In this document: piece after piece, positions 2,289 through 27,160 of the stretch
Numbering within the stretch: position 1 is the first letter of the stretch
How the letters are laid out: each line of letters begins with the position of its first letter
Assembly: GCA_018702955.1 (NCBI GenBank)
Contig: JABJEK010000058.1
Location: 47,150-111,149 of the forward strand
DNA from: Rhodospirillaceae bacterium
GTDB taxonomy: Bacteria; Pseudomonadota; Alphaproteobacteria; UBA6615
Length of the DNA: 64,000 nt
Direction: 5' to 3'
The notes under the pieces: generated by a model
Databases searched by the model: none
The model's input: only the letters and a program-made list of their open reading frames with translations
Told to the model about the DNA's origin: nothing
Position numbers and translations under genes: made by a program

Positions 2289-2346
2289 TCAGATCACGGT
2301 GGGCATATGTATCTGTTGGGCAACAACGCATCCAACGGAGAGTACG

Positions 2347-3531
2347 ATGTCCGATCACGCGAAAAACGACGACCGAAAGACGTTCGACCACAACTTCGTT
2401 TACGGCACCGTTGAAGGTGACGAGATCGACGGCACCTTCGAGCACGAGATCATCTTCGGCTACAACGGTGACGACGAGGTTCGCGCCGGCGGCGGTGACG
2501 ACTATGTCTGGGGCGGCAGCGGTAATGATCGCCTTTATGGCGAAGACGGAAACGACCACATCTTCGGGGGTCGGGACGATGACAGACTCTTCGGTGGCGA
2601 CGGCGATGACTGGCTCGACGGCGGCCCCGGGGATGACTGGCTGTACGGAGATCAGGCCGGTGACGTCGGCAACGACACACTCCTCGGCGGCCTTGGTGAC
2701 GACGAGTTGCACGGCGGTGACGGAAACGATCACCTCGAGGGCGGTCAGGGCAACGACGAACTTCATGGTGAGAACGGAGACGACTGGCTCCATGGCGGCC
2801 AGGGCGATGATCGGCTGCACGGCGGCAACGGCAACGACACGCTGTGGGGTCTCGACGGAGATGACCGACTGCTAGGCAGCGATGGTGATGATGAATTGCA
2901 TGGCGGCGACGGCGATGACCAACTCAACGGCGGAAACGATAATGACTGGCTCTTCGGAAACGCTGGCGACGATTCACTCTATGGCGAGAACGGCGACGAC
3001 CAGCTGTTCGGGTGGACCGGGACCGACCTACTCGAAGGCGGAAACGGGAACGACGAACTCCATGGCGGCGAAGACGGCGACACCCTGCGCGGCGAAGCTG
3101 GCAATGACGGGTTATGGGGAGACGTCGGCGATGATGATCTTGCGGGTGGCGCGGGCATCGATGTTCTGGAAGGCGGTGAAGGCAACGACACGCTCGATGG
3201 AGGCGAGGACCAGGATTTCCTTTTTGGAGAAGAAGGCACGGATACGCTCAACGGCGGCAACGGCGACAACGCGGAGGATCATCTCTGGGGCGGTGAAGGC
3301 GACGACCTGTTCCTGTTCTCCGTCAACGGCGGCGACGACTGGGTCGAGGATTTCACGTCCGGCGAAGACTCGCTTGATGTCTCGGCTTTGGGCTTCGTGG
3401 ATTTCGCTGATTTGCTGTCAGGCACGAGTGATGTCAGCGGCAACGCCACCATCGACTATGGCAACAACGACGCGATTACGCTGGTCGGCGTCGCAACAGC
3501 CGACCTGACGGCGGATGACTTCCTCTTCTGA
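2347..3531 (+). CDS. Calcium-binding RTX (hemolysin-type nonapeptide repeat) protein
   Basis: About 30 tandem L/FxGGxGxDx repeats followed by a T1SS-substrate-like C-terminus (DWVEDFTSGEDSLDVS ... DDFLF); GGAGAG RBS before ATG 2347. Confidence 0.9.
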   Translation: MSDHAKNDDRKTFDHNFVYGTVEGDEIDGTFEHEIIFGYNGDDEVRAGGGDDYVWGGSGNDRLYGEDGNDHIFGGRDDDRLFGGDGDDWLDGGPGDDWLYGDQAGDVGNDTLLGGLGDDELHGGDGNDHLEGGQGNDELHGENGDDWLHGGQGDDRLHGGNGNDTLWGLDGDDRLLGSDGDDELHGGDGDDQLNGGNDNDWLFGNAGDDSLYGENGDDQLFGWTGTDLLEGGNGNDELHGGEDGDTLRGEAGNDGLWGDVGDDDLAGGAGIDVLEGGEGNDTLDGGEDQDFLFGEEGTDTLNGGNGDNAEDHLWGGEGDDLFLFSVNGGDDWVEDFTSGEDSLDVSALGFVDFADLLSGTSDVSGNATIDYGNNDAITLVGVATADLTADDFLF

Positions 3532-3534
3532 GAT

Positions 3535-4866
3535 CTAGCCCGCAGCGTCAAAATGGTGCACGAGCTTGGTCTTGTAATCCGTGCGCGGCAGGCTCCCGAA
3601 CGGCACGACCTCGACCCTGGTCGTGACCACGAGTTTCGCGCGGATGGCCTTTTCGATGGCTTCACCGAGGCCGGCGCCAGGGCTGCTGCCCTCCGCCGCC
3701 TCGACGTGAACCGGCAGCGGCGGCAATTGCTGTACGCCCTGCCGGCTCGGGCGCACCAGCATGATCCCGCTGACATCCGGGCGAAACTGGTTCACCACCT
3801 CCCGGATCGCACTGGGGAAGATGTTGACCCCGCGCACGATGAGCATGTCGTCGGTCCGCCCGATGCAACGAATGCGCGGCCCCGTGCGGCCGCTCGCGAC
3901 CGGCCCCATGCTGACCGTGACATGGTCGCGCGAGCGAAAACGCAGCAGGGGCGCGGCTTCCTGCTGCAAATGGGTATAGACCGGCTCGCCCTGGACCCCG
4001 TCCTCGAACGGCAAGGTTTCCCCGGTCTCGGGATCAATCAGCTCCATGTGGATGTAGTCCCGGGCGAGGAAGTTCATGCCCGCCTGTTCCGGCCCCTCCC
4101 CGAACATGGAAATCGACATTTCACCGAGCCCCATCACCTCATGCACCTTGGCGTTGAACGCCGCCTCGATCTGCGCCCGAACTTCCGGTTCACCCCCGCC
4201 TGGCTCACCGCCGGCCACGAGCGTCTCCAGTCCGCACGCCGCCGGATCAATGCCGCGTGCACGCGCGGCTTCGGCGATATACAGGAAATAAGATGGCGTC
4301 CCGGGCATCGCCTGCACCTGAAAACGCTCCAGCGCCGTCAGGAGACGATCGGTGTTGCCGCTGCCCACCGGCACCATGCGCACGCCCAGCGCGATCATGG
4401 ATTCGTGCACCGCACCCGCCACGAAGGGGCCGGAATTATAGGTGGTGACGACCCGGTGATGGGGACGGATACCGGCGGCGAAATAGCTGCGGTTCGATGT
4501 CTGGACCCAGCGCTTGAGGTCACCCTGGGTAACGGGAATATAAAGCGGCGTACCCGACGTCCCGCTGGTTGAATAAATCCGCACCACATCGTCGAGCGGA
4601 GCCGCAAGCTGCTTACCCAGCGGCAGGTGCCCGGCCTGGCTGGCACGCAGTTCATCTTTGACCGTGAACGGCAGGTGCCGCAGATCATCCAGCCCGCCGA
4701 CGGATTCGGGCGTCTTGAAACCGGCCGCCTTGAACTTCTCGCGATAAAACTCGGACCGCGCGAACAGATACTCGATCTGTTTGCGGTAAACCGGCTCGTC
4801 CTTCTGTTTCTGGTCCGCGAGGTCCCGGGTCTCGGCCTCGGGATCAAAGAGATCGGCGGCCGACAT
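3535..4866 (-). CDS. Phenylacetate-CoA ligase (PaaK) family acyl-CoA ligase
   Basis: YSTSGTSGTP AMP-binding loop; GGEPGG, LLRFRSRD and GRTDDMLIVRGVNIFPS motifs. Confidence 0.85.
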   Translation of the reverse strand: MSAADLFDPEAETRDLADQKQKDEPVYRKQIEYLFARSEFYREKFKAAGFKTPESVGGLDDLRHLPFTVKDELRASQAGHLPLGKQLAAPLDDVVRIYSTSGTSGTPLYIPVTQGDLKRWVQTSNRSYFAAGIRPHHRVVTTYNSGPFVAGAVHESMIALGVRMVPVGSGNTDRLLTALERFQVQAMPGTPSYFLYIAEAARARGIDPAACGLETLVAGGEPGGGEPEVRAQIEAAFNAKVHEVMGLGEMSISMFGEGPEQAGMNFLARDYIHMELIDPETGETLPFEDGVQGEPVYTHLQQEAAPLLRFRSRDHVTVSMGPVASGRTGPRIRCIGRTDDMLIVRGVNIFPSAIREVVNQFRPDVSGIMLVRPSRQGVQQLPPLPVHVEAAEGSSPGAGLGEAIEKAIRAKLVVTTRVEVVPFGSLPRTDYKTKLVHHFDAAG

Positions 4867-4871
4867 ATATT

Positions 4872-5657
4872 CTAGTCCCCGTCATAGGTGATGGCTTCTT
4901 CCCCGTGGTGGGCCAGCAGGAAACCGATCGGACGTTCCATTTCCTCGTTTAAATGACCGATCAGGCCCACCGTGCGGGCGAGAATGGGAATCCCCCGGAT
5001 CGCCGCCTTGGGAAAATCCAGGTCGAGAAGCACTGCCGCCATCGGCCCTTGCAAATTCATCGGCAGCGGCTTGCCCCAGACCTCGGCAACAGCATCCGGG
5101 AAGGCCCGCAGCGCGCCAACATGGCGTGCAGACACGCCGCGCTCGTCCGCCAGATCGAGGATGCGTACCGCGCGGGGATCAACCGGGTGGTGGATGGGAT
5201 GGCCGAACCCGGGAATAAACTTGCCGGCGTCCTTGTATTCACGTGCGATGGCGAGCGCCGCCGCCTCGGGAGACTCTCCGCCCTCGATCCGCGTCGCCGC
5301 ATCATCGAGCATTTCGCCGCAAACATCCGCACTGCCCAGAATGACGGAGCCGACCCCGAGGAGGCCGGCCGCAACTGCGCCCTGCATGGCCTCCGGTGCT
5401 GCCGCCAGGGTCATGCGGGCCGCCTGCACACTCGGCGTCAGGCCATGTTCGGCCAGCGCCACCACCAGGACGTCCATGAAGAACGCCTGATCGGCGCTGG
5501 GCTCACGCCCTGTGAGATGAAGAAAGAAAAACTCGGCGATAGAGCTGTGCCCCATAACCTCATTGCATAGATCCTTCCCGCGTACCGTGATCGAGGTGGC
5601 ATCCGCCGTTTCGATGGCAGTTTTCGCCTCGCCCTTCTTACCAATCAGCATCGTCAT
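4872..5657 (-). CDS. Citryl-CoA lyase-like / citrate synthase-fold protein
   Basis: AEHGLTPS, IPGFGHPIH and ARTVGLIGH motifs; start placed at the ATG downstream of a GGGGAG RBS. Confidence 0.8.
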   Translation of the reverse strand: MTMLIGKKGEAKTAIETADATSITVRGKDLCNEVMGHSSIAEFFFLHLTGREPSADQAFFMDVLVVALAEHGLTPSVQAARMTLAAAPEAMQGAVAAGLLGVGSVILGSADVCGEMLDDAATRIEGGESPEAAALAIAREYKDAGKFIPGFGHPIHHPVDPRAVRILDLADERGVSARHVGALRAFPDAVAEVWGKPLPMNLQGPMAAVLLDLDFPKAAIRGIPILARTVGLIGHLNEEMERPIGFLLAHHGEEAITYDGD

Positions 5658-5841
5658 CTCCCCTAAGTGCTGCGCGACGATAGGGTCAAACACGCGCCTA
5701 AACAATATTTCACATATGAGAAGAATAATTCGTAGTGTGGAACGAGATTGACTCTTGCCAACACCCTTCGTCTAGAATGCATCAGGGCCCGATAAATCGC
5801 GGACGACAAGCCGCGAAGGCAGAGGCCAGGGAGATAACGCT

Positions 5842-6957
5842 ATGAAATACGGAATGTTCGCAATGCCGCTCCGTCCGCCCGGGGGGGACGTCACCAAGGA
5901 ATACCATCAGGATATCGAAACCTTCGTCATGGGCGACAAGCTCGGCTACACCGAAGGCTGGATGGGCGAGCATTACACCATTCCGTGGGAGCCGATCCCG
6001 GCCACAGACCTCTTCGCCGCATCCGTATTCGCGCGCACCGAGAACATCCGCATCGGCACCGGCATCGTGCTGTTGCCCATGCACGATCCACGTCAGGTGG
6101 CATTGCGTATCGCTTATCTCGACCATCTGTCGAAAGGCCGCCTGAATTTCGGGATCGGTGCCGGTGGCGCCCCGACCGACTTCCAGTTCTGGGATATCGA
6201 CTACAAGGAAGGCGAGCATCGCGCACGCATGCGTGAATCGATCGACGTGATCAAGCGCTTGTGGACCGAAGACGAGCCGTTCGAACACAATGGCAAATTC
6301 TGGCAGTTCAAGGTGCCGGAACCGATGCCGCAAGTGCCGTTGGGCCATCACATTCGGCCCTATCAGGACCCGCATCCGCCGATCGCTGTATCGGGATTGC
6401 ACAAGGCGTCGGAATCGCTGTTCACGGCGGGGGCCAACGGCTGGATACCGATGAGCATCAACTACCTGCCGGCGGTCAACCTCAACACCCACTGGGATGC
6501 CGTGTGCGAGGGTGCGAAATCCACCGGCCGTCCCGCGCCGCGTCGCAGCGAGTGGCGGATTGCACGTGAGGTGTTTGTCGGCAAGACGGACCAGGAAGCG
6601 CGCGACCATGTGCTGAACGGCCCGATCGGACGTGCGTATACCGACTACATGTACAACGTGCTGAAGTCGCTGGGCGCGACCGATCTCTACAAGGGAGATC
6701 CGGACATGCCCGACGAAGCGCTGACGGCGGAGTATGTTTGCGACAATATCTGGGTTGTCGGCAGCCCCGACACGGTCGCGGAAAAGCTGAGCAAGCTCTA
6801 TGACGACGTGGGCGGTTTCGGCACCGTGCTGCAGATCCAATACACCTACGAACCGCACCAGATTTGGTACGACAACATGGACCTGTTCGCCAACAAGGTG
6901 ATGCCGAGCCTCGCGCACCTCGTGCCCGAAGACGAACCGGCCGCCGCAGCGCAGTAA
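5842..6957 (+). CDS. LLM-class (luciferase-like) flavin-dependent monooxygenase
   Basis: WMGEHY, IRIGTGIVLLP, LDHLSKGRLNFGIGAG, PYQDPHPPI and VVGSPDTV motifs. Confidence 0.9.
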   Translation: MKYGMFAMPLRPPGGDVTKEYHQDIETFVMGDKLGYTEGWMGEHYTIPWEPIPATDLFAASVFARTENIRIGTGIVLLPMHDPRQVALRIAYLDHLSKGRLNFGIGAGGAPTDFQFWDIDYKEGEHRARMRESIDVIKRLWTEDEPFEHNGKFWQFKVPEPMPQVPLGHHIRPYQDPHPPIAVSGLHKASESLFTAGANGWIPMSINYLPAVNLNTHWDAVCEGAKSTGRPAPRRSEWRIAREVFVGKTDQEARDHVLNGPIGRAYTDYMYNVLKSLGATDLYKGDPDMPDEALTAEYVCDNIWVVGSPDTVAEKLSKLYDDVGGFGTVLQIQYTYEPHQIWYDNMDLFANKVMPSLAHLVPEDEPAAAAQ

Positions 6958-6981
6958 CAGGGCACCAAAATGTTCGGCCCA

Positions 6982-7007
6982 CCCCGCATCACGCGCGTGA
7001 TGCGGGG
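6982..7007. other. Perfect 26-bp palindrome (intercistronic hairpin)
   Basis: CCCCGCATCACGC/GCGTGATGCGGGG, no adjacent U-tract. Confidence 0.75.
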
Positions 7008-7037
7008 CTCGCCAACATAAGCATCACGGAGACCTAA

Positions 7038-8069
7038 ATGTCCGTTGCCTCTGAATCGAAATTCCAAGTATCCCCCGATATCGCGGCATGCATTGCTGAA
7101 GAGCGCATTCCGATCATCGATGTCGGCGACTTTCTGTCGGGCGACGCCGATGCGCTGGAGCAGTTCGCGACCGACTTGCGGGCGATCCAGGAAAGCCTCG
7201 GCTTCTACTGCATCGTCAATCATGGCATCGATCAGGGGCTGATCGATCGCAGTTTCGACCAGATTGCGGAACTGTTTGCGCTGCCCGATGAGACCAAGTT
7301 GAAATACCGGGTAGACTTCCACCATCAAGGCTTCATCCCCAACAAATCGCTGATCCTGCGCTGGTCGAAGATTGCGAAGAATGAGAAGAAGGACCTGAAC
7401 GAGGCTTGGGCGTTCATGCGTGAGCGAACCGCCGATGATCCCAAGGTCAAAGACAATATCCGTCACCGAAACCTCAACCAGTGGCCGGAAGAGCTGCCGG
7501 AATTTCGCAAAACGCTTGTCGAGTATCAGGAAACCATGGCCGTATTGGCGACGCGGATGCTACCCGCTTATGCCCGGGCGCTCGAAATGCCGGCGGACTA
7601 TTTCGACGAGAAGTTTTCGCACCCCGAATATTACAACCGTTGTGCCTGGTATCCGCCCGTCGATGCCGAGGAGGGACAATTCTCACTGTCGCCCCATTCC
7701 GACCACAGCTCCATGACCTATCTGCCACTCATGGATGTGGCGGGACTTGAGGTCATGGCACCGTCGGGGAAATGGATGCAGATCGAGCCCCTGCGCGGTG
7801 CGATCGTCGTGAACACCGGTGAGTTCTTCAACCGCTGGACCAACGGACGTTTCATCGCCACGCCGCACCGCGTCGTACCGCCGCTGAAGGACCGCTACGC
7901 GCTGACATTCTTCTACAACTGCAACGACGAAACCGTGGCCGACCCGATCCCGACCTGCATCAATCCCGGAGATAAGCCGGTCTATGTACCCATGTCGTTC
8001 CACGACTTCTTCATCACCTATATGGATGGCAACTACATCTACCGCACGGCGGAGATGGACGGGGACTAG
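7038..8069 (+). CDS. 2-oxoglutarate/Fe(II) oxygenase, isopenicillin N synthase-like family
   Basis: IPIIDV N-terminal DIOX region; HSD...H facial triad (PHSDHS, TPHRV); NTGE..RWTNG motif. Confidence 0.9.
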   Translation: MSVASESKFQVSPDIAACIAEERIPIIDVGDFLSGDADALEQFATDLRAIQESLGFYCIVNHGIDQGLIDRSFDQIAELFALPDETKLKYRVDFHHQGFIPNKSLILRWSKIAKNEKKDLNEAWAFMRERTADDPKVKDNIRHRNLNQWPEELPEFRKTLVEYQETMAVLATRMLPAYARALEMPADYFDEKFSHPEYYNRCAWYPPVDAEEGQFSLSPHSDHSSMTYLPLMDVAGLEVMAPSGKWMQIEPLRGAIVVNTGEFFNRWTNGRFIATPHRVVPPLKDRYALTFFYNCNDETVADPIPTCINPGDKPVYVPMSFHDFFITYMDGNYIYRTAEMDGD

Positions 8070-8117
8070 TGGTCCTGGCCACCCACCCCCAGTATGTCCC
8101 GTGACGAAAGCAGTCGT

Positions 8118-8894
8118 ATGAGCGCTGAGCATATCCTGACCGAAACGCGTGATCGCGTGCTGTATGTGACCATCAACCGGGTGGAGAAACACAACGCGCT
8201 CGCGATTTCGATTATCGACGAAATCGGCGAGACCTTCCGCGCGGCGGCAAAGGACGAGACACTTGTGGCGGGCGTGCTGCGTGGAGCGGGCGAAAAGACC
8301 TTCGCCGCCGGCGGCGACTTGCGTGAACTGGCCGGGCTGCGCACCCAGACGGAAGCCGAAAAAATGGCAATCGATGCCAAGGCAGCATTTAACGCCATCC
8401 GGGATTTCCCCGTCCCGGTTATCGCAGGGCTCAACGGCAACGCCTTCGGCGGCGGGGCCGAGCTCGCCGTATCGTGTGACTTCCGCGTCGCGGCGGCCCA
8501 CGCCAAAATCGGCTTCGTCCAAGGTCGGCTAGCCCTGGCCACGGCATGGGGCGGCGGCCCGGACCTGCTCGACCTGGTCGGCCGCGCGCGGGGCCTGCGG
8601 CTGATGAGCACCGGCGAAATGCTCGACCCGGCAACAGCACTGGAAATTGGCCTGTATGACGCGGTGGGTCAGGCCGCCGAGCCCTTCGACGAAACAATCG
8701 AGGGCTTCCTCGCACCGATCCGCAAGCAGAAGCCGCAATCCATGCGTGCGTTCAAGGCCGTCAGCGATTCACACCGGCGCGGAGATGCTCGCACCGCGAT
8801 GCAAGAGATAGAGACCTGCATGTTCGTGAAGACCTGGGTCCATGACGATCACTGGGAGGCGGCCGAAAAGGTGCTTCCCACGAAGAAGGGCTGA
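8118..8894 (+). CDS. Crotonase-family protein, ECHDC1 (alkylmalonyl-CoA decarboxylase)-like
   Basis: FAAGGDL, GGGAELAVSCDFR and FVQGRLALATAWGGG motifs; the second catalytic Glu position is Gln. Confidence 0.8.
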   Translation: MSAEHILTETRDRVLYVTINRVEKHNALAISIIDEIGETFRAAAKDETLVAGVLRGAGEKTFAAGGDLRELAGLRTQTEAEKMAIDAKAAFNAIRDFPVPVIAGLNGNAFGGGAELAVSCDFRVAAAHAKIGFVQGRLALATAWGGGPDLLDLVGRARGLRLMSTGEMLDPATALEIGLYDAVGQAAEPFDETIEGFLAPIRKQKPQSMRAFKAVSDSHRRGDARTAMQEIETCMFVKTWVHDDHWEAAEKVLPTKKG

Positions 8895-8898
8895 CCCG

Positions 8899-10542
8899 AT
8901 GACCGACAATTCCGCCCCCCGGAAAGACGACGCCGAGGCCGCGCGTCGCGAGCCACCAACCAAACCCTCCACCGCAACTCCCTCGGGCATCGAGGTGCCG
9001 CCGGTGGTGACGCCGGATATGGTGGCAGACCGCGAACCGGAGATGCCGGGCGAATATCCGTTCACCCGCGGCATCTTCCCCGATGGTTTTCGCGGCCGAT
9101 TGTGGACCATTCGCCAGTATTCGGGTTTCGGCACGGCCGAGGAATCGAATGAGCGCTACAGGTTTCTGCTCGATCAGGGACAAACCGGCCTGTCGGTCGC
9201 GCTCGACTTGCCCACCCAGTGCGGCTACGACCCGGTCGATCCGATTGCGAAATCCGAAGTCGGCAAGGTCGGTGTCTCCCTGTCGAGCCTGGCCGAGGCC
9301 GAAATATTGTTCGACGGCATCGATCTGGGCGGAATCTCCACCTCCTTCACGATCAACGGCACCGCGTCGATCATCTACGCCATGTATTGCGCCGTCGCCG
9401 ACAAAAAGGGCGTACCGCGCGAGAAGCTGACCGGCACGATCCAGAACGACATCCTCAAGGAGTATGTCGCGCGCGGCACCTGGATTTTCCCGGTGCGCCC
9501 ATCGATGCGCCTGATCGCCGATACGATCCTGTTCTCCTATGACCAGACACCCCGATTCAACGCGATCAGCATCGCCGGCGCCCATGTGCGCGACGCGGGC
9601 TGCACGGCGGTCGAGGAGATGGGCTACACGCTAGCCAACGGGCTCGCCTATATCGACGAACTGATCCGCCGGGGCGGCGATGTGGAGAAATTCGCACGCC
9701 GGCTCAGTTTCTTCTTCTATGTGCACATGGATTTCTTCGAGGAAGTCTGCAAATTCCGCGCGGGTCGGCGGCTCTGGGCAAAACTCCTCACCGAACGCTA
9801 CGGCGTGAAGGATCCCAAGGCCCTTATGTTTCGTTTCGGCGTTGTCTGCGGCGGCTCGTCCCTGGTCGGCGCCCAGCCTTACAACAACGTCGTCCGCGTC
9901 GGCATCGAGAACATGGCGGCCGTGATGGGCGGCGCCCAATCCATCTTCACCGCCGCATTCGACGAGGCCTACCAGATTCCGACCGAGCATTCTGCGGAGA
10001 TCGCCGTCCGCACCCAGCAAATCGTCGCCCATGAATCCGGCATCGCACGAACCGTCGACCCATTGGGTGGCAGCCACTATGTCGAGTGGCTGACCGACCG
10101 GATGGAGGACGAAGTCATGAAGGTAATCGACGAGATCGAGGCATATGGTGGCGTGACCAAGGCGGTGGAAGACGGCTGGCTGCAGATGAAAATCGCCCAG
10201 CGCGCATCCGAGCGAAAACATAAGATCGACAGCGGTGAAACAGTCGTTGTCGGCCAGAACCACTTCCGTCGCGACGACCAGAATGACGGTGTCGCCGAAT
10301 TATTCAAACTCGACCCGCAAGCATCAGCCCGCGTCATCGGCAAGTTCGAAAAAGTCCGTGACAGCCGTGACAACGACGCGGTCACGGCATCCCTGTCTGC
10401 CCTGGAGGCAGCTGCCGCCAAGGACGATGAGAACCTCATGCCCTATCTGATCGATTGCTGTCATGCCTATGCAACTGTCGGTGAGATGGTGGCGACACTG
10501 AAGTCGCAATGGGGCGAATTCGAAGAACCAGTGAGGCTTTAG
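8899..10542 (+). CDS. B12-dependent acyl-CoA mutase, large (substrate-binding) subunit
   Basis: PGEYPFTRG, WTIRQYSGFG, GTIQNDILKEY, QPYNNVVRV and DPLGGSHYVE motifs; no B12 domain fused. Confidence 0.95.
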   Translation: MTDNSAPRKDDAEAARREPPTKPSTATPSGIEVPPVVTPDMVADREPEMPGEYPFTRGIFPDGFRGRLWTIRQYSGFGTAEESNERYRFLLDQGQTGLSVALDLPTQCGYDPVDPIAKSEVGKVGVSLSSLAEAEILFDGIDLGGISTSFTINGTASIIYAMYCAVADKKGVPREKLTGTIQNDILKEYVARGTWIFPVRPSMRLIADTILFSYDQTPRFNAISIAGAHVRDAGCTAVEEMGYTLANGLAYIDELIRRGGDVEKFARRLSFFFYVHMDFFEEVCKFRAGRRLWAKLLTERYGVKDPKALMFRFGVVCGGSSLVGAQPYNNVVRVGIENMAAVMGGAQSIFTAAFDEAYQIPTEHSAEIAVRTQQIVAHESGIARTVDPLGGSHYVEWLTDRMEDEVMKVIDEIEAYGGVTKAVEDGWLQMKIAQRASERKHKIDSGETVVVGQNHFRRDDQNDGVAELFKLDPQASARVIGKFEKVRDSRDNDAVTASLSALEAAAAKDDENLMPYLIDCCHAYATVGEMVATLKSQWGEFEEPVRL

Positions 10543-10551
10543 GATCGCACC

Positions 10552-10950
10552 ATGAGCCTGAACGGAAAACGTATCCTGATCGCGAAACCGGGCCTCGACG
10601 GGCACGATGTCGGCGCAAAAATCATCGCCCTGGCGCTGCGCGACGCAGGCGCCGACGTGATCTATACCGGCCTCCGGCGCACGCCCGACTATATCGCGCG
10701 GGTCGCGGTCGACGAGGATGTCGACGCGGTCGGACTGTCGATCCTGTCGGGCAGCCACAAGGAGCTGGTCGAGGAGACGGTGCGTTGTCTCAACGAGTTG
10801 GATGCTGGTGATATCCGCCTGTTCGTCGGCGGCACCATTCCGGCGGAGGACCATGACGAACTGCGCGATGCGGGCGCCCGCGGCATTTTCACGGCAGAAA
10901 TGACGATCAATGATGTGGTGGCCGCGCTCGACGCGGAACTGAGCGCGTGA
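10552..10950 (+). CDS. Acyl-CoA mutase small subunit (cobalamin-binding domain)
   Basis: KPGLDGHDVGAKII (DxHxxG), VGLSILSGSH and FVGGTIP motifs. Confidence 0.95.
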   Translation: MSLNGKRILIAKPGLDGHDVGAKIIALALRDAGADVIYTGLRRTPDYIARVAVDEDVDAVGLSILSGSHKELVEETVRCLNELDAGDIRLFVGGTIPAEDHDELRDAGARGIFTAEMTINDVVAALDAELSA

Positions 10951-12089
10951 GTGGAGGCCCCCTTTCCGGCGTTCGGATCATTGAGGTCGCGCATGTTCTC
11001 GCCGGCCCGTTCTGCAGCATGATTCTGGGCGACCTGGGCGCCGACGTGATCAAGGTCGAGCCCCCGGGCGGCGACATGGCCCGCAACATCACCAAGCAGT
11101 TCACGGGGCCCTACAACGACTATTTCGCGAGCCTCAACCGCAACAAGCGCTCCATCGTCCTCGACCTGAATACGCCGGCCGGTCAGGCCCAACTCGGCGC
11201 GCTCGCGGCCGATGCCCAAGGCCTGGTTACCAACCTGCGACCCGCCACCATTCGGCGTTTCGGCCTGACCTATGACGACCTGAAGCCCCACAATCCAAAT
11301 CTGGTTTGCCTGGCGTTGACGGGGTTTGGGCTCGACGGACCCTATGCCGACAAGCCTGCTTACGACTACATCGTCCAGGCGCTCGCCGGTGTCATGACCC
11401 TGACCGGTGACCCGGGCACCGCGCCGACCAAGGCCGGTTACTCCGCCGTCGACAATTCAACCGGCATGATGGGTGCCATCGGCCTGCTGGCGAAGATCAT
11501 CGAGGGCAAGGGTGGCCAGGTCGATGTCTCCCTGTTCGACACCATGCTGGCCCAGCTCAACTATCTGGCCTCGGGCTACCTCAACCACGGCATCGTCCCG
11601 CAACGAACATCGCAAAGTGCGCACCCGTACATGGTCCCGGCCCAGGTCTTCGAGACCAGCGACGGATACCTGATGTTGTTCATCTCGACCGACAAGTTCT
11701 GGAAGAAATTCTGCGAGGTCGTCGGCTGGACCGAACAGGCACGTGACCCGAACCTCGCAACCATGAATGCGCGGACGGAAAACCGCGACGCCGTGATCGG
11801 CGCCGTCGGCGAACTCATGAAGTCACAAACCACCGCATACTGGGTCGAGACACTCGGCAACGAGGGCCTCGTGGTCTCGGGCGTCGAAACCCTCGACCAG
11901 GCACTCGATGGGGACATGGCCGCATCGCGTGAGATGATAGCGGTAATTCCCACACCCGACGGTGCGCTCCGCGTGGTCGGTAATCCGATCAAGATGACCG
12001 ATCATCCGCCCCGGTATGGCCTGCCGCCGCTGCTGGGCGAACATACTGACGAAATCCTGGGCACCTCGCCCGCCGCCGCAGCCAAATGA
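10947..12089 (+). CDS. Family III CoA-transferase (CaiB/BaiF)
   Basis: LAGPFCSMILGDLGADVIKVEPPGGD, NRNKRSI and YSAVDNSTG (catalytic Asp position) motifs. Confidence 0.93.
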   Translation: MSGGPLSGVRIIEVAHVLAGPFCSMILGDLGADVIKVEPPGGDMARNITKQFTGPYNDYFASLNRNKRSIVLDLNTPAGQAQLGALAADAQGLVTNLRPATIRRFGLTYDDLKPHNPNLVCLALTGFGLDGPYADKPAYDYIVQALAGVMTLTGDPGTAPTKAGYSAVDNSTGMMGAIGLLAKIIEGKGGQVDVSLFDTMLAQLNYLASGYLNHGIVPQRTSQSAHPYMVPAQVFETSDGYLMLFISTDKFWKKFCEVVGWTEQARDPNLATMNARTENRDAVIGAVGELMKSQTTAYWVETLGNEGLVVSGVETLDQALDGDMAASREMIAVIPTPDGALRVVGNPIKMTDHPPRYGLPPLLGEHTDEILGTSPAAAAK

Positions 12090-12985
12090 GCGGCACGTCA
12101 CGCAATCCGCGGCGAAACCTCAGCCGCGCGCTGTCGCGCATCGCCAACGCCGATGTCTACGAGACCCTGGCACAGCAGAGCGGACCATCCGCAGAAAACC
12201 TGCCGCGGATCGGCATCACGGGCGCACCGGGCGCGGGCAAAAGCTCCCTCATCGCCAGGCTCGCCAAGCTCCGCAAACGCAACGACCGAAAGATCGCGGT
12301 GCTGGCGGTCGACCCGTCGAGCCCGGTCTCCCAGGGTTCCATCCTCGGCGACCGGATTCGCATGGACGCCATCGCCGACGACCCGGACATCTTCATCCGC
12401 TCGATCCCCTCGCGCCGCGCCCATGACGGCCTGGCGGACAACACCGCCGATCTGCTCAACGCCATGGAAGGGCACGGGTTCGGCGAAATCATTCTTGAGA
12501 CAGTGGGCGTCGGACAGGCCGAGTACACCATCCGCACATTGGTCGACACGGTGGTGCTCATCCTGGTGCCCCATTCCGGCGATGCCATCCAGGCGATGAA
12601 GGCCGGCATTCTCGAAATGGCCGATATCTATGTTGTAAACAAGGCCGACCTGCCCGGCGCCGACCTGATGGCCACCGAAATCGAGCAAGTGGCCGACCAT
12701 CAAAGCGCCGACGGCTGGACCCCACCCGTCATCATGACGTCCCGCAACGATCCCGAGGGCTTTGCCGCGCTCGATGACGCCATCAATGCCCATATGGCCT
12801 GGCAGGTGAACCACGGCGATCCGGCCGCAGCGCGGCGCGCCCGCGCGCGCTACCAGGCCCAGGCGCTCATTTCCCGGCGCATCGACGAAGTGCTCGAGGC
12901 GGCCGGCGAAGATATCCTCGACCAGAATCCCGGCGAGCTGTTCGACGCGATCGTCGCCCGGCTCGGCCGCACAAACGAGGCATGA
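12086..12985 (+). CDS. meaB: MeaB/ArgK mutase-associated GTPase
   Basis: GITGAPGAGKSS, AVDPSSP, LGDRIRM, ETVGVGQ and VNKAD motifs; adjacent to the mutase genes. Confidence 0.92.
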   Translation: MSGTSRNPRRNLSRALSRIANADVYETLAQQSGPSAENLPRIGITGAPGAGKSSLIARLAKLRKRNDRKIAVLAVDPSSPVSQGSILGDRIRMDAIADDPDIFIRSIPSRRAHDGLADNTADLLNAMEGHGFGEIILETVGVGQAEYTIRTLVDTVVLILVPHSGDAIQAMKAGILEMADIYVVNKADLPGADLMATEIEQVADHQSADGWTPPVIMTSRNDPEGFAALDDAINAHMAWQVNHGDPAAARRARARYQAQALISRRIDEVLEAAGEDILDQNPGELFDAIVARLGRTNEA

Positions 12986-13905
12986 CACAAATGTTCGCAC
13001 CACCCCCTGTCATCGAAACCCGGGTCTTCGCCGATGTGAATGCGACCCACGGCATCAATGACCGGGAGTCCGAATGGGCGAAGCTCCTGTTCGGCCGCCC
13101 CAACACGCCGAGTTTCCTCGAGGGACCCTCGTTTGATCGCGCCGGCAATCTCTGGCTCGTCGATGTCGCCTGGGGCCGTCTGTTCCGTATATCGCCGGCC
13201 GGCGATATCGAGCTTGCCTGTACCTATGACGGCGAGCCCAATGGCTTGGCCTTCCACAAGGACGGACACGGCATCATCGCCGACCATTATCACGGGCTGA
13301 TGCGCCTCGATCCCGAGGCCGGCACGGTGGAACCTCACATGGTGCGCAACACCAATGAGCGGTTTCGCGGCACCAACGACCTGACCTTCGCCTCGAACGG
13401 CGACCTCTACTTCACCGACCAGGGCACGTCCGACCTGATTGATCGGTCGGGCCGGGTGTTTTGCCTGCATGCGGATGGCACCCTCGAACTCGTCTGCGCG
13501 GACCTGCCGAGCCCGAACGGGCTGGTCCTGAGTGGCGACGAGAAAATTCTGTATGTGGGCCTGACCCGCGACAACGCGGTCTGGCGCATGCGCCTGGCCG
13601 AACGCGGCCGCGCGGATCAGGTGGGGCGTTTCGCGCGCATGTCGGGCGGCACCGGCCCGGACGGCATGGCCGCGGACGCCGACGACAACCTTCTCGTCTG
13701 CCATGTCGGGTTCGGCGCGATCTGGGTGTTCGCAGCCAACGGAGAGCCGATCTACCGGATCAACTCCTGCGCCGGGCCGTTGATGACCAACTGTGCATTC
13801 GGGGGGCCCGACGGCAAGACCCTCTACATCACGGAATCGGCTACCGGTCAGGTGCTCACGGCCGAGATGCCGACGGCGGGCCGCATTCTATTTTCACACA
13901 TGTAG
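12982..13905 (+). CDS. SMP-30/gluconolactonase family beta-propeller
   Basis: FLEGPSFD, PNGLAF, TNDLTF.LYFTD, PNGLVLS and PDGMAAD motifs. Confidence 0.9.
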   Translation: MTQMFAPPPVIETRVFADVNATHGINDRESEWAKLLFGRPNTPSFLEGPSFDRAGNLWLVDVAWGRLFRISPAGDIELACTYDGEPNGLAFHKDGHGIIADHYHGLMRLDPEAGTVEPHMVRNTNERFRGTNDLTFASNGDLYFTDQGTSDLIDRSGRVFCLHADGTLELVCADLPSPNGLVLSGDEKILYVGLTRDNAVWRMRLAERGRADQVGRFARMSGGTGPDGMAADADDNLLVCHVGFGAIWVFAANGEPIYRINSCAGPLMTNCAFGGPDGKTLYITESATGQVLTAEMPTAGRILFSHM

Positions 13906-13983: not shown

Positions 13984-14868
13984 CTACTCCGCCGCCTTCG
14001 TGATTTCACCCTCGAGGATCTCGTAGACCACCGCACACTCATCCTCGAGGCGTCCGGCCTTTTCGATCTTCTTGTAATAGTCGTTGCAGATCCGCAGCAG
14101 CGGCGCCGACAGGCCCAGCGCGTCGGCCTGCTCCTCGACGATATCGAGGTCCTTCCACAACAGCTTGCTCGGGCCCGCGCAGGGCTGCCAGGCCCGGTCC
14201 TTGATGATGCCCGCGCGCATGCCGAAAACGGTCGACCCGGCGGCACTCGGACCCACGATATCGATCATCAACTCGGGGTCGAGGCCCATCTCCGCACCGA
14301 ACAACATGCCTTCTGCCAGGGCCACCGTGTTCGCCCCGACCATAAAGTTGATCATCAGCTTGAGCTTGATGCCGGTGCCGTATTCGCCGACATAGAACGT
14401 CTTCGGGCAGACCTTCTCAAGCATCGGCTTCACGGATTCACAAAGCGTCTCGTCGCCGCTCATCATGATGACGCCCTTGCCCGCCCGAATGATCGGCTGG
14501 GTGCCGCTCAGGGGGCAATCGATGATCTGTGCGGGTGTATCGCCGACCTGGTCGCGGACACGCTCCTTCTCGCCCACCGGGAAGGTGTTCATCTCGATGA
14601 TCGTCAGGCCTTCATGGGCACCGGCCAGCAGGCCGTCAGGACCCTCCAGCGCCGTGCGGGACGCCTGGGTGCTCGGCAGCGCCGAAATCACCACATCGGC
14701 CCATTCAGCAAGCTCACGCGCCGTCTCGAATAATTTGCCGCCGGTGTCCGGGAAGCTCTCGGTGCTCGGGCGACGAACCGCAGCGCATTCGTAACCCTCC
14801 GGCATCAGGATCTCGGCCGTAATACCGCCAATCAGCCCAAGACCCAGAATTCCTACCTTTTCAACCAT
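13984..14868 (-). CDS. NAD(P)-dependent beta-hydroxyacid dehydrogenase (3-hydroxyisobutyrate dehydrogenase family)
   Basis: GILGLGLIGG Rossmann motif, DCPLSG, and KLKLMIN with the catalytic Lys. Confidence 0.85.
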   Translation of the reverse strand: MVEKVGILGLGLIGGITAEILMPEGYECAAVRRPSTESFPDTGGKLFETARELAEWADVVISALPSTQASRTALEGPDGLLAGAHEGLTIIEMNTFPVGEKERVRDQVGDTPAQIIDCPLSGTQPIIRAGKGVIMMSGDETLCESVKPMLEKVCPKTFYVGEYGTGIKLKLMINFMVGANTVALAEGMLFGAEMGLDPELMIDIVGPSAAGSTVFGMRAGIIKDRAWQPCAGPSKLLWKDLDIVEEQADALGLSAPLLRICNDYYKKIEKAGRLEDECAVVYEILEGEITKAAE

Positions 14869-14907
14869 GATGTCCTCCCTCTAGAAGCAATCTCATATGT
14901 CCCGACC

Positions 14908-15498
14908 TCAGGGGCCGGCGCCCAATACCGCCTCGCGGAACCGGGAGCGCAAGTAGGCCCCGTCCCGCGCCGGTAGGACGCGCGGATGCTCACCCGCCTC
15001 GATCTTGATGTTGGCAAACAACGTCCCCTCGCAGCGCTGCATGCGTGTCGCGAGCGTGCCCAGCGCGTTCATGTCCCGGATATCCTCGAGCGCCTCGATC
15101 CCGCAACCCCGTGCCACATCCACCAGGCTGACCCCGCGCGCCGTCGCCGTCGGCTGGGCTCCGGTTTCGCCATAGACCTCGTTGTCGAGCACGATCACCG
15201 ACAGGTTGGCGGGTTGAGCGGCGGCGATCGTCGCCAGGCTGCCGAGACCCATCAGCATGTCCCCATCACCGGTGATGGCGGCGACCGGCCGGTCCGGTTG
15301 TGCCTGCGCCAGCCCGAGCGCCAGGGCGGCGGTGCCTCCCATGGCACCCCAGAGATAGAAATTACGCGGATCGTCGCCCGCGGCCGCGCAGTCATAGGTC
15401 GCCGAGCCGAGCCCGGAGACCACAAGCAGCTCGCCGCGATCCTGCAGCAGTCGCGCGACGGCCTCGCGGCGGTCCAGGCGCGGTTGGGGTCCGGTCAT
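14908..15498 (-). CDS. ThDP-dependent decarboxylase beta subunit (sulfopyruvate/phosphonopyruvate decarboxylase-like)
   Basis: GAMG and GDGDMLMGLGSL...LDNEVYGETG ThDP-binding motif. Confidence 0.85.
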   Translation of the reverse strand: MTGPQPRLDRREAVARLLQDRGELLVVSGLGSATYDCAAAGDDPRNFYLWGAMGGTAALALGLAQAQPDRPVAAITGDGDMLMGLGSLATIAAAQPANLSVIVLDNEVYGETGAQPTATARGVSLVDVARGCGIEALEDIRDMNALGTLATRMQRCEGTLFANIKIEAGEHPRVLPARDGAYLRSRFREAVLGAGP

Positions 15499-15499
15499 G

Positions 15500-16051
15500 T
15501 CAGCCCTCCTCCGTGAAGGCCTTGCGGCCGATCAGACGCTGGGAAAGCAGCACCGCCGAGGCGAGCATCCCGTCAAAGGATTGCCGGATCGCGGCATCGA
15601 GTGTCGGCGCGGCGTCATCGGGGTCGTCGACCCGATGCGCCTGCACGCCCATCCGCGTGAGTATGTCGGGTGTCGCCTGCCCCATCTGGGCCTGCCACGG
15701 GTTGAACTCGCCCCATTCGCCGCGCATCGTGATGAGCGTCACCAGCGGCAGCCGACAATTCTCGATCAGGGTGAACATGTTCACGCAATTGCCCACGCCG
15801 CTCGATTGCATCAGCAGGATCCCGCGATCACCGCCTAGCCAGGCACCAGCCAGCAACGCCACACCGTCCTCTTCCGTGGTCAGGACCGTCGCGGTCATGT
15901 CCGGGTTGTCTTCGCACCGCTCGATCAGCCGCGCATGCCCCGCATCCGGCACATAGGCGACCTGGCGAATATTCTGCTGCACCAGCACGTCGTAGAGCGC
16001 GTCGGCCCAATCCGGCGTCGCGGCATCGGGCCTTATAACCGTGTCGCTCAT
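15500..16051 (-). CDS. ThDP-dependent decarboxylase alpha subunit (ComD-like)
   Basis: AYVPDA, TTEEDGVAL, MQSSGVGN and RGEWGEFNPWQ motifs; paired with the beta subunit. Confidence 0.85.
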   Translation of the reverse strand: MSDTVIRPDAATPDWADALYDVLVQQNIRQVAYVPDAGHARLIERCEDNPDMTATVLTTEEDGVALLAGAWLGGDRGILLMQSSGVGNCVNMFTLIENCRLPLVTLITMRGEWGEFNPWQAQMGQATPDILTRMGVQAHRVDDPDDAAPTLDAAIRQSFDGMLASAVLLSQRLIGRKAFTEEG

Positions 16052-16803
16052 ATGCTCCCCCCGAGAGCCTCAAGCCGGTCCTTCGCGGCCAGCAGCTGTG
16101 CTGCAAGCTTGGTCTCGCCGGCCTCCATTCGCACGAGGGGGCCCGCAATCGCGATCCCCATGATCTCGCCATACACGTCCGCCGTGGTCGCCAGCCCCAT
16201 CACATCGACGACATTCTCGCCACGGGTCACAAAATATCCCTTGGCGATGCCGTCGGCGAGATCGGCCACCAGGCTCGCGCGCTCGGTGATCGTATTCGGG
16301 GTCTGCAGGTCGAGCGACAGGCGCGCCACCAGGGCCGCGCGCTCCCCGTCATTCAGGCGACCGAGAAACGCCTTTCCGATCGCGCTCGAATGCATGGGTT
16401 TGATGTCCCCCGCGCCGGCAGAATAACGCAACGTCTGACCTCCCTCGATCACATCGAGATAGAGGATCGTCTCGCCCTGGCGGCGGCCCAGCAGGATTGT
16501 CTCGTTGGTCTCGTCACGCAGCACCTCCAGCACCGGGACAATGCTTTCGAGAACCGGATCATGGGCGGCAATGGTGTTGGCGATTTCCAGCAGGCGTTTG
16601 GTCGGATAGATCGCCCGGTTTCGTTCGGAGGTGTAGAGATATCCCTTGGCGCTGAGCGTCCGGACCAGCCCGTGGCAGCTGCTGATCGGCGCCGACAGGG
16701 CCTCGGCAATCTGGGTCAGGGTCATGGGACCCTTGCGACGCGAGAACGCCTCAAACAGGTTTACGGTACGTACCGCTGTCTTCACACCATCATTCATATT
16801 CAT
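16048..16803 (-). CDS. IclR family transcriptional regulator
   Basis: N-terminal HTH (VKTAVRTVNLFE...SSCHGLVRTL); HSSAIGKA and IAIAGP effector-domain motifs. Confidence 0.9.
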   Translation of the reverse strand: MNMNDGVKTAVRTVNLFEAFSRRKGPMTLTQIAEALSAPISSCHGLVRTLSAKGYLYTSERNRAIYPTKRLLEIANTIAAHDPVLESIVPVLEVLRDETNETILLGRRQGETILYLDVIEGGQTLRYSAGAGDIKPMHSSAIGKAFLGRLNDGERAALVARLSLDLQTPNTITERASLVADLADGIAKGYFVTRGENVVDVMGLATTADVYGEIMGIAIAGPLVRMEAGETKLAAQLLAAKDRLEALGGSI

Positions 16804-16919
16804 GAAATTGAGTTTGACCGTGTGAAACACAGGGGTCAAGCGCCGCCCACTCTGCTTTTCCGAAGTCCGGCAATGGCGTAAAATCGAAGCAACCGAACAA
16901 CAAATCGCGGTGCGCCTGC

Positions 16920-27083: not shown

Positions 27084-27160
27084 TGGTGGGCCCGGCAGGA
27101 CTCGAACCTGCGACATGACCGTTATGAGCGGTCCGTTCTAACCAGCTGAACTACGGGCCC
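27084..27160 (-). tRNA. tRNA-Ile2 (CAU anticodon, lysidine-type)
   Basis: GGGCCCGTAGTTCAGCTGGTTAGAACGGACCGCTCATAACGGTCATGTCGCAGGTTCGAGTCCTGCCGGGCCCACCA: 77-nt cloverleaf with encoded CCA. Paired G1 rules out the initiator; C4-G69/C5-G68 favour Ile2 over elongator Met. Confidence 0.9.

Follow-up and report, generated by a model that had tools for sequence, protein, structure and literature searches.

Which substrate does a coenzyme B12-dependent acyl-CoA mutase serve when it has kept the residues that grip a carboxylate and replaced much of the polar wall around them? The question is raised by an open reading frame (ORF) at positions 8899-10542, on the forward strand, of a 64,000-nucleotide stretch of Rhodospirillaceae bacterium DNA (assembly GCA_018702955.1, contig JABJEK010000058.1), the whole of which we call the window. 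The set of characterised B12-dependent acyl-CoA mutases is small, comprising methylmalonyl-CoA mutase (MCM), isobutyryl-CoA mutase (ICM), ethylmalonyl-CoA mutase (ECM), 2-hydroxyisobutyryl-CoA mutase (HCM) and pivalyl-CoA mutase (PCM), and so far every new specificity has brought a new pathway to light and supplied biotechnology with a further carbon-skeleton rearrangement. An earlier sequence-only reading of the locus had proposed a mutase with an enlarged pocket for a bulkier dicarboxylic acyl-CoA, and had claimed that its combination of residues matches no characterised subfamily. Here we weigh that proposal against alignments, homologue collections and gene neighborhoods. With a probability of about 0.62, we favor the reading that the ORF encodes the catalytic subunit of a distinct adenosylcobalamin (AdoCbl)-dependent mutase subfamily, operating within a module that breaks down an imported, substituted succinate.

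A conserved and remodelled active site

The ORF reads through as one uninterrupted translation of 547 amino acids. Its start at 8899 is the one used for the mutase by independent gene callers on 10 metagenome contigs; an alternative ATG at 8842 would give a longer ORF that overlaps the upstream gene. The product aligns with model positions 2-512 of the 512 in PF01642, scores 660 bits against the superfamily model TIGR00641 (cut-off 304), and is 43-45% identical to the HCM and MCM structures, HCM 4r3u being the best-scoring solved structure (E 2e-142). It is the sole mutase in the 64-kb window. The small subunit encoded directly downstream carries the motifs DxHxxG (as DGHDVG), an SxL-type SILSGSH and VGG, and the first of these, the base-off/His-on motif, is kept in all 62 small-subunit orthologues. 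The product of a third gene scores 241.9 against the cut-off of 240.75 for TIGR00750, the score of a MeaB protein. By sequence, then, the ORF is the large subunit of a two-subunit acyl-CoA mutase accompanied by MeaB, and AdoCbl-dependent activity is predicted. An AlphaFold2 model of the large subunit, built on a 34-sequence family alignment, resembles HCM and MCM (Foldseek TMq 0.74-0.77, at a mean predicted local distance difference test, or pLDDT, of only 65). With pLDDT below 50 in segments 44-77, 102-126, 319-329 and 352-371, the model backs the fold alone and is too poor at the active-site loops to speak to pocket size.

The residue map comes from a MAFFT alignment of the query with P. shermanii MCM (1req_A, in which chain index plus one gives the literature numbering), human MUT and HCM 4r3u, the sequences being taken from HMMER output. 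Every assignment of the sequence-only reading is reproduced exactly, including the offset of 15 residues between query and MCM that drops to 14 past a one-residue gap. Y74, Q182, R192, H229 and E356 correspond to Y89, Q197, R207, H244 and E370 of MCM and are kept, whereas A228, G314, V316 and A352 stand in place of Y243, H328, Q330 and N366. Twelve further changes accompany these replacements (in MCM numbering Y75F, M78G, F117L, N208G, S241A, E247D, S329V, T331C, S332G, W334S, H364F and S367A). Seen as motifs, the query has SIAGAH (224-229), RFGVVCGGS (312-320) and FTAAFDE (350-356) for the SISGYH, RTHSQTSGW and HTNSLDE of MCM; seen as a set, Y243, S241, H328, Q330, W334, H364 and N366 have become A, A, G, V, S, F and A. 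There is consequently an apolar wall of small residues (A, A, G-V-V-C-G-G-S, F, A/C) where MCM presents Y243, S241, H328-W334, H364 and N366.

This pattern is under constraint. Among the 120 best homologues (identity 74-100% to the query, 71-100% among themselves), 20 of 23 active-site positions are invariant, compared with 41.5% of all columns (hypergeometric p = 6e-6). The five kept residues are invariant throughout; of these, H244 and E370 serve catalysis and cofactor binding across the superfamily, and residue 89 is the wedge position. All four replacements named by the earlier reading also stand, the N366 position being the sole variable one among the residues it had listed (Ala in 50 and Cys in 70 of the homologues). 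The signature string is found as well in 74 species-level genomes, where it varies at positions 352 (A/C) and 354 (F/Y/L); position 60 of the large subunit has Y for F in one of them. Because invariance in the active site exceeds the column background, we take the pattern to be a selected family trait rather than the work of chance.

Might this nevertheless be an ordinary MCM or ECM, with substitutions that leave specificity unaffected? Database annotation would have it so, since members are labelled 'methylmalonyl-CoA mutase (family)' everywhere, a name that is uninformative. The retention of Y89, R207, H244, Q197 and E370 points in the same direction, as do H328G and S329V, which are common with ECM. 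We nonetheless consider this explanation highly improbable. The product reaches 570.5 bits against NF006944, the NCBIfam MCM equivalog, under its cut-off of 876, and at more than 12 active-site positions the query departs from a residue that does not vary in MCM, each change being itself fixed in the family. ECM, for its part, has Y243, Q330, N366P, a fused B12 domain and a ccr neighbor, none of which the query shares. The CoA-transferase, crotonase and transporters that constantly accompany the mutase, which we describe below, likewise do not make up an MCM or ECM context.

The character of the cavity bears on the substrate. Since the lining is small and apolar, the substrate is most likely a hydrocarbon-substituted succinyl- or malonyl-CoA, and the residues point to one or more alkyl, branched, aryl or ring substituents. 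In such a complex, Y74 and R192 would anchor the free carboxylate, with H229 holding the thioester carbonyl and E356 holding the adenosyl ribose. Catalysis would follow the course expected of the family, in which Co-C homolysis yields a 5'-deoxyadenosyl radical, the radical abstracts hydrogen, the thioester carbonyl undergoes a 1,2-shift and hydrogen is returned. As to individual compounds, 2,2-dimethylsuccinate, cyclohexane-1,2-dicarboxylate, methylsuccinate and phenylsuccinate are guesses.

A module of CoA-transferase, mutase and crotonase

If the pocket suggests what kind of molecule is bound, the neighboring genes suggest how it arrives and what becomes of it. In the window, the genes for a 2-oxoglutarate (2OG)-dependent oxygenase, a crotonase-fold protein, the large subunit and the small subunit are separated by 24, 4 and 9 nt, respectively; from there on, 4-nt overlaps join the small-subunit, CoA-transferase, MeaB and SMP-30/gluconolactonase-like (SGL) genes in turn. 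The core of this arrangement recurs across the 80 related genome loci kept for an operon census, with the crotonase in 70, the small subunit in 62, a family III CoA-transferase in 55, MeaB in 44 and an IclR-family regulator in 42. Loci without the family III enzyme have a ScpC-type CoA-transferase nearby. In other genomes IclR homologues sit directly upstream of the module, and annotated IclR/KdgR genes adjoin it on plasmids. The commonest further neighbors are organic-acid uptake systems (DctPQM TRAP, TAXI-TRAP, TctC/TctA of the TTT type, MFS and ABC). Neither BLAST clustering of neighbors nor a Pfam scan of 129 neighbor proteins found a further consistently linked enzyme; only transporters recur. 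At the mutase operon itself there was no notable cobalamin riboswitch, promoter or terminator signal.

The top NCBIfam matches of the CoA-transferase are succinate-glutarate and succinyl-CoA:mesaconate CoA-transferases, both under cut-off, and its PDB matches include SUGCT and YfdE; judged by these relatives, it probably activates a free dicarboxylate. With a dicarboxylate-type CoA-transferase and organic-acid transporters linked to the mutase, the proposal of a bulkier dicarboxylic acyl-CoA is consistent with its surroundings.

Close relatives occur in at least 184 species genomes of those scanned. The 74 genomes with the signature string span the Alpha-, Beta- and Gammaproteobacteria, and the 80 census loci also include one metagenome-assembled genome (MAG) each under the labels Nitrospira and Acidimicrobiales. 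Cultured carriers include Halomonas/Billgrantia, Bradyrhizobium, Paraburkholderia, Sulfitobacter and Marinobacter. In cultured Marinobacter, Sulfitobacter, Diaphorobacter and Paraburkholderia, relatives are also encoded on plasmids or chromids. On the 210-kb plasmid of Marinobacter sp. M3C (L088, 8022-19940), genes for an enoyl-CoA hydratase-type protein, the large and small subunits, a CoA-transferase, MeaB and a PduO-type adenosyltransferase follow one another, bracketed by IS5/IS630 and IS21; this copy looks like a mobile catabolic cassette. Bradyrhizobium manausense SZCCT0118 carries two paralogous modules 31 kb apart on one contig (L040 and L079), one with an ABC transporter and without a family III transferase, the other with IclR, DctPQM and two family III transferases, which suggests two related substrates. 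In an alphaproteobacterial MAG (L044, 14063-16971), an acyl-CoA dehydrogenase resembling isovaleryl-CoA dehydrogenase and a liu-like carboxyltransferase come directly after the module. These neighbors hint at a branched acyl-CoA product, a single case that we have not adopted.

In the catabolic scheme that we favor, a TRAP, TAXI, TTT, MFS or ABC transporter would bring in the free acid, and the family III CoA-transferase would form its CoA ester. The mutase would then turn the substituted succinyl-CoA into a substituted malonyl-CoA, which the crotonase-fold protein would probably decarboxylate to an ordinary acyl-CoA for beta-oxidation, with the whole module under the IclR regulator. Such a route would be a bulky-substrate analogue of the E. 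coli ScpA-ArgK-ScpB-ScpC system (Sbm-YgfDGH).

The role given here to the crotonase is the step that calls for most scrutiny. The protein retains the first catalytic Glu of its fold (GGGAELA) and has a C-terminal W-H-x-DHW motif that is conserved in its family. With a rat enoyl-CoA hydratase sequence as the yardstick, an invariant Gln appears to occupy the second-Glu position of hydratases. Because every match to the NCBIfam crotonase equivalogs falls under cut-off, the subfamily probably has an uncharacterised activity. It is 24% identical to the E. coli methylmalonyl-CoA decarboxylase ScpB, which likewise has the first Glu and lacks the second, and by this analogy a substituted-malonyl-CoA decarboxylase is the probable function, as a reasoned guess. 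A contig of JGI metagenome 3300050821 (genes 5590-10506), reached through a further mutase clade (P0136), encodes a 537-aa fusion of MeaB to an enoyl-CoA hydratase domain. The P0136-type mutase on that contig is 44% identical to the query and also has Ala at Y243, and the fusion adjoins a ScpC-type CoA-transferase inside a cluster of Rieske dioxygenase, extradiol and meta-cleavage hydrolase genes. By the Rosetta-stone argument, a MeaB-crotonase fusion beside a related mutase suggests that the crotonase works with the mutase.

Several points weigh against this account. The enlargement of the pocket is deduced from side-chain sizes alone, and the AlphaFold2 model is unreliable in the active-site loops. 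In MCM structures, moreover, Q330, N366 and H328 lie beside the deoxyadenosyl ribose as well as the substrate, and part of the remodelling could therefore concern the handling of the cofactor instead of the size of the substrate. The crotonase, at the identity given above, is no close relative of ScpB; it has no equivalents of ScpB His66 and Tyr140, and it could instead be an isomerase, epimerase, hydratase or thioesterase.

The role of the crotonase being putative, the pathway might also run in the opposite direction, assimilatory or biosynthetic, from a substituted malonyl-CoA to a substituted succinyl-CoA, as in the ethylmalonyl-CoA pathway; the crotonase would then serve as epimerase or hydratase. 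The mutase can catalyse its reaction both ways, and mutases of the MatB/ActD type have been proposed to yield 2-pentylsuccinyl-CoA (PMC5719088). However, crotonyl-CoA carboxylase/reductase (CCR), nonribosomal peptide synthetase or polyketide synthase, and biotin carboxylase genes are not linked to the module in the related loci, one of which has the liu-like carboxyltransferase mentioned above. Uptake transporters, IclR and a CoA-transferase as regular partners are moreover typical of catabolism, and an assimilatory or biosynthetic role strikes us as distinctly unlikely.

Returning to catabolism, a bolder version can be framed, although we would bet against it. The mutase might perform a rearrangement new to acyl-CoA mutases, for example that of a 2,3-disubstituted or ring succinyl-CoA to a 2,2-disubstituted (quaternary) malonyl-CoA, which the loss of Y243 together with the polar 328-334/366 wall would permit. 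The enzyme would then form the core of a widespread, horizontally mobile CoA-transferase/mutase/crotonase shunt by which aerobic marine and soil bacteria convert a branched or cyclic dicarboxylate that is common in their environment to an ordinary acyl-CoA.

In more sober terms, the finding is a widely distributed variant, probably of altered specificity, of an enzyme kind already known, set in a conserved and tractable operon. If the catabolic reading is true, the turnover of organic acids in sea and soil would gain a step that depends on B12, which bears on the cobalamin demand of these communities. The clade is well suited to follow-up, being common, present in cultured carriers, sharply defined by an invariant active site and housed in a compact operon. 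As the operon has its own transporter and regulator, screening either the binding protein or the regulator for ligands should lead to the substrate.

Lineage-specific genes around the module

The remaining genes of interest in the window (Table 1) have a far narrower distribution than the module. The ligase, citryl-CoA-lyase-like protein, monooxygenase, 2OG oxygenase, lactonase-like protein, thiamine pyrophosphate (TPP)-dependent decarboxylase and 3-hydroxyisobutyrate dehydrogenase (HIBADH)-like protein are shared with only 8-18 close marine relatives. The luciferase-like monooxygenase, encoded in the same direction as the mutase, matches 3,6-diketocamphane 1,6-monooxygenase (4uwm) over its full length (E 1.6e-47), a type II Baeyer-Villiger enzyme of camphor degradation. 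In Diaphorobacter, an oxygenase of the isopenicillin N synthase (IPNS) family likewise lies near the module. The company of a Baeyer-Villiger homologue, a lactonase-like protein, a 2OG oxygenase and a CoA ligase suggests a cyclic ketone or lactone precursor; speculatively, the accessory genes of this marine alphaproteobacterial lineage would probably feed such a terpenoid-like precursor into the module.

Table 1. Features of the window discussed in the text, in order of position
Feature	Position	Strand	Matches and occurrence
410-aa ORF, almost all GGxGxD / 'GNDxL' nonapeptide repeats, RTX-type calcium-binding repeat-like	2299-3531	+	
PaaK-like aryl/acyl-CoA ligase	3535-4866	-	TIGR02155 235 bits, far under cut-off 646; 13/80 loci
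Citryl-CoA-lyase-like protein	4872-5705	-	NF004868 307 bits vs cut-off 193; 11/80 loci
Luciferase-like FMN monooxygenase	5842-6957	+	PF00296; 15/80 loci
2OG/Fe(II) oxygenase (IPNS/ethylene-forming enzyme-like)	7038-8069	+	PF14226, PF03171; 9ovh E 6.7e-42; 15/80 loci
Crotonase-fold protein	8094-8894 (gene callers start 8118)	+	PF00378; ends 4 nt before mutase
Acyl-CoA mutase large (substrate-binding) subunit	8899-10542	+	547 aa; PF01642 E 8e-196
B12-binding small subunit, 132 aa	10552-10950	+	PF02310, TIGR00640 E 6.6e-41
Family III (CaiB/BaiF) CoA-transferase	10947-12089	+	PF02515 E 1e-109
MeaB-type G-protein chaperone	12086-12985	+	PF03308 E 4e-70
SMP-30/gluconolactonase-like (SGL, lactonase) protein	12982-13905	+	PF08450 E 5e-43; 8/80 loci
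Convergent operon: IclR, split TPP-dependent decarboxylase (183 + 196 aa), HIBADH-like dehydrogenase	13984-16839	-	
IclR-family regulator	16048-16839	-	Homologues in 42/80 loci, median identity 51%
tRNA gene	27087-27160	-	Only Rfam match in window

The convergent operon opens a further alternative. Judged by length and split layout only, its TPP-dependent decarboxylase looks like a sulfopyruvate or phosphonopyruvate decarboxylase, and together with the HIBADH-like neighbor it resembles sulfonate or hydroxy-acid metabolism, so that the substrate of the mutase might be no dicarboxylate at all and the Tyr/Arg pair might bind a hydroxyl, keto or sulfonate group. Outside 14-18 close relatives, however, this operon does not travel with that of the mutase. 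All characterised mutases of non-carboxylated substrates have lost Y89 and/or R207, both of which are invariant here; the linked CoA-transferase has its best matches among dicarboxylate transferases; and carboxylates are the typical cargo of TRAP, TTT and TAXI systems. We find a non-dicarboxylate substrate very improbable, and keep to a substituted succinyl- or malonyl-CoA.

Relation to known and proposed mutases

How distinct is this subfamily? In a search of 1.84 billion cluster representatives, the nearest clade (P0121, from Actinomycetota) is 55% identical to the query, and all else is at most 50%. This sister clade shares with the query a GAAHD / GVVCGG / F-AA signature and has orthologous CoA-transferase, crotonase and small-subunit neighbors, but differs in having H at Y75, A at F117, W334 retained and W at L368; it was also hit on a plasmid of Streptomyces sp. 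N50 and is likewise uncharacterised. The same search returned dozens of unnamed clades that retain Y89/R207 yet rewrite 243, 328-334 and 364-368. The query subfamily is therefore one of many remodelled clades, though an unusually widespread one. The earlier claim that the pattern matches no characterised subfamily holds insofar as it is not that of MCM, ECM, HCM or an ICM-type enzyme, and a literature search that included dimethylsuccinyl-, isopropylmalonyl- and alkylsuccinyl-CoA mutase as well as methylsuccinate catabolism found no characterisation of the clade. Its distinctiveness was overstated all the same, given the dozens of uncharacterised clades that are remodelled alike. A CoA-transferase accompanies many of these remodelled-pocket clades, and a crotonase some of them, so that a 'mutase shunt' suggests itself as a general strategy, as yet largely unexplored. 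Elsewhere in the superfamily, a fused B12-mutase (P0134; L087, 1458-9145) lies with a family III CoA-transferase, a dihydropyrimidinase-like amidohydrolase, PreT/PreA-like dihydropyrimidine dehydrogenase subunits and a glyoxalase-fold protein, which would connect a mutase to a reductive pyrimidine-type route, a connection that would be new to the literature.

The proposal of a bulky substrate is likewise not unique. IaaGH has been proposed as a phenylsuccinyl-/benzylmalonyl-CoA mutase of anaerobic auxin (indoleacetate) degradation (PMC8360864), and MatB/ActD as hexylmalonyl-CoA mutases in the biosynthesis of the matlystatin and actinonin warheads (PMC5719088); both are biochemically little studied. 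Like the query, IaaGH is an MCM-family enzyme, proposed for an aryl-substituted succinyl/malonyl-CoA, that is paired with a family III CoA-transferase (PMC8360864), and MatB/ActD are MCM-family mutases proposed for succinyl/malonyl-CoA with a long alkyl substituent (PMC5719088). The MatB/ActD enzymes are set apart by gene context, the mat/act context holding CCR, epimerase and NRPS genes. IaaGH differs from the query in gene context, with an acyl-CoA dehydrogenase, a molybdenum hydroxylase and a hydantoinase, and, as far as a surrogate mutase shows, in its residues. That surrogate (P0183), a fused mutase from an iaa-like cluster rather than IaaG of EbN1 itself, keeps Y243 and reads M-A-G-G-G-G-G at 328-334, a signature unlike that of the query. 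Glycine-rich 328-334 strands appear also in other clades with putative ties to bulky substrates, P0183 being an example, which counts in favor of the reading adopted here. The gene itself (L085, 1456-9969) lies beside an acyl-CoA dehydrogenase, subunits of a molybdoenzyme of the xanthine-dehydrogenase family and a family III CoA-transferase, a layout that resembles the iaa operon.

Whether the query is itself an IaaGH-type phenylsuccinyl-CoA/benzylmalonyl-CoA mutase, of indoleacetate or other aryl-acid degradation, can be judged from the same comparison. An aryl group would suit the apolar, glycine-rich pocket, and the PaaK-like CoA ligase and family III CoA-transferase of the window resemble IaaB and IaaL (PMC8360864). 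In the window cluster, though, an IaaF-type acyl-CoA dehydrogenase, a molybdenum hydroxylase and a hydantoinase-like gene were not found. These iaa genes are not regularly linked in related loci either, acyl-CoA dehydrogenases making up 3 of the 129 neighbor proteins, and the ligase stands beside the module in 13 of the 80 loci only. Together with the unlike signature of the surrogate, this leaves the IaaGH-type assignment with very little credence, and we return to a subfamily of its own when comparing it with the characterised enzymes.

HCM (HcmAB, 4r3u) shares with the query a two-subunit architecture of large and small subunits and a MeaB-type chaperone, but has I90/Q208 in place of the carboxylate-binding Tyr/Arg and keeps Y243, H328, Q330 and N366, the opposite pattern. 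ICM-like representatives carry F/Q at 89/207. The earlier statement that HCM and ICM alter Y89/R207 instead is thereby borne out, and the query, with Y74/R192 intact, is not of the ICM/HCM/PCM type. MCM (P. shermanii MutB, human MMUT, E. coli ScpA) has the fold and the catalytic core in common with the query, at the identity stated at the outset, and differs by the more than 12 active-site substitutions. In operon logic, the module resembles E. coli scpA-argK-scpB-scpC, which likewise joins a mutase, a G-protein chaperone, a crotonase-fold enzyme and a CoA-transferase; in the query module, however, the CoA-transferase belongs to family III rather than to the ScpC type, and the B12 domain is a separate subunit.

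The most instructive comparison is with ECM (Ecm/MeaA), also a dicarboxylyl-CoA mutase for a substrate larger than methylmalonyl-CoA. As reference we used the 672-aa fused mutase of Methylobacterium aquaticum, encoded divergently beside a crotonyl-CoA carboxylase/reductase (TIGR01751, 619 bits). It keeps Y89, R207, Y243, H244, Q330 and E370, and has H328G, S329V, T331V, S332N, W334L, H364Q, N366P and S241C, in agreement with the sequence-only reading, which had given ECM Gly at H328 with Tyr243 and Gln330 kept. The two enzymes are 37% identical and have Y89, R207, H244 and E370 in common, as well as H328G, S329V and N208G. They are not alike at 243, 330 and 366, where ECM has Y, Q and P, and ECM is a single polypeptide with a fused C-terminal B12 domain beside ccr, whereas the query is split into subunits and ccr was found neither among the checked cluster genes at 3.5-18 kb nor among the sampled neighbors of related loci. 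On these residues, the query pocket may be read as an ECM-like opening that Q330V, N366A/C, Y243A and S241A have taken further.

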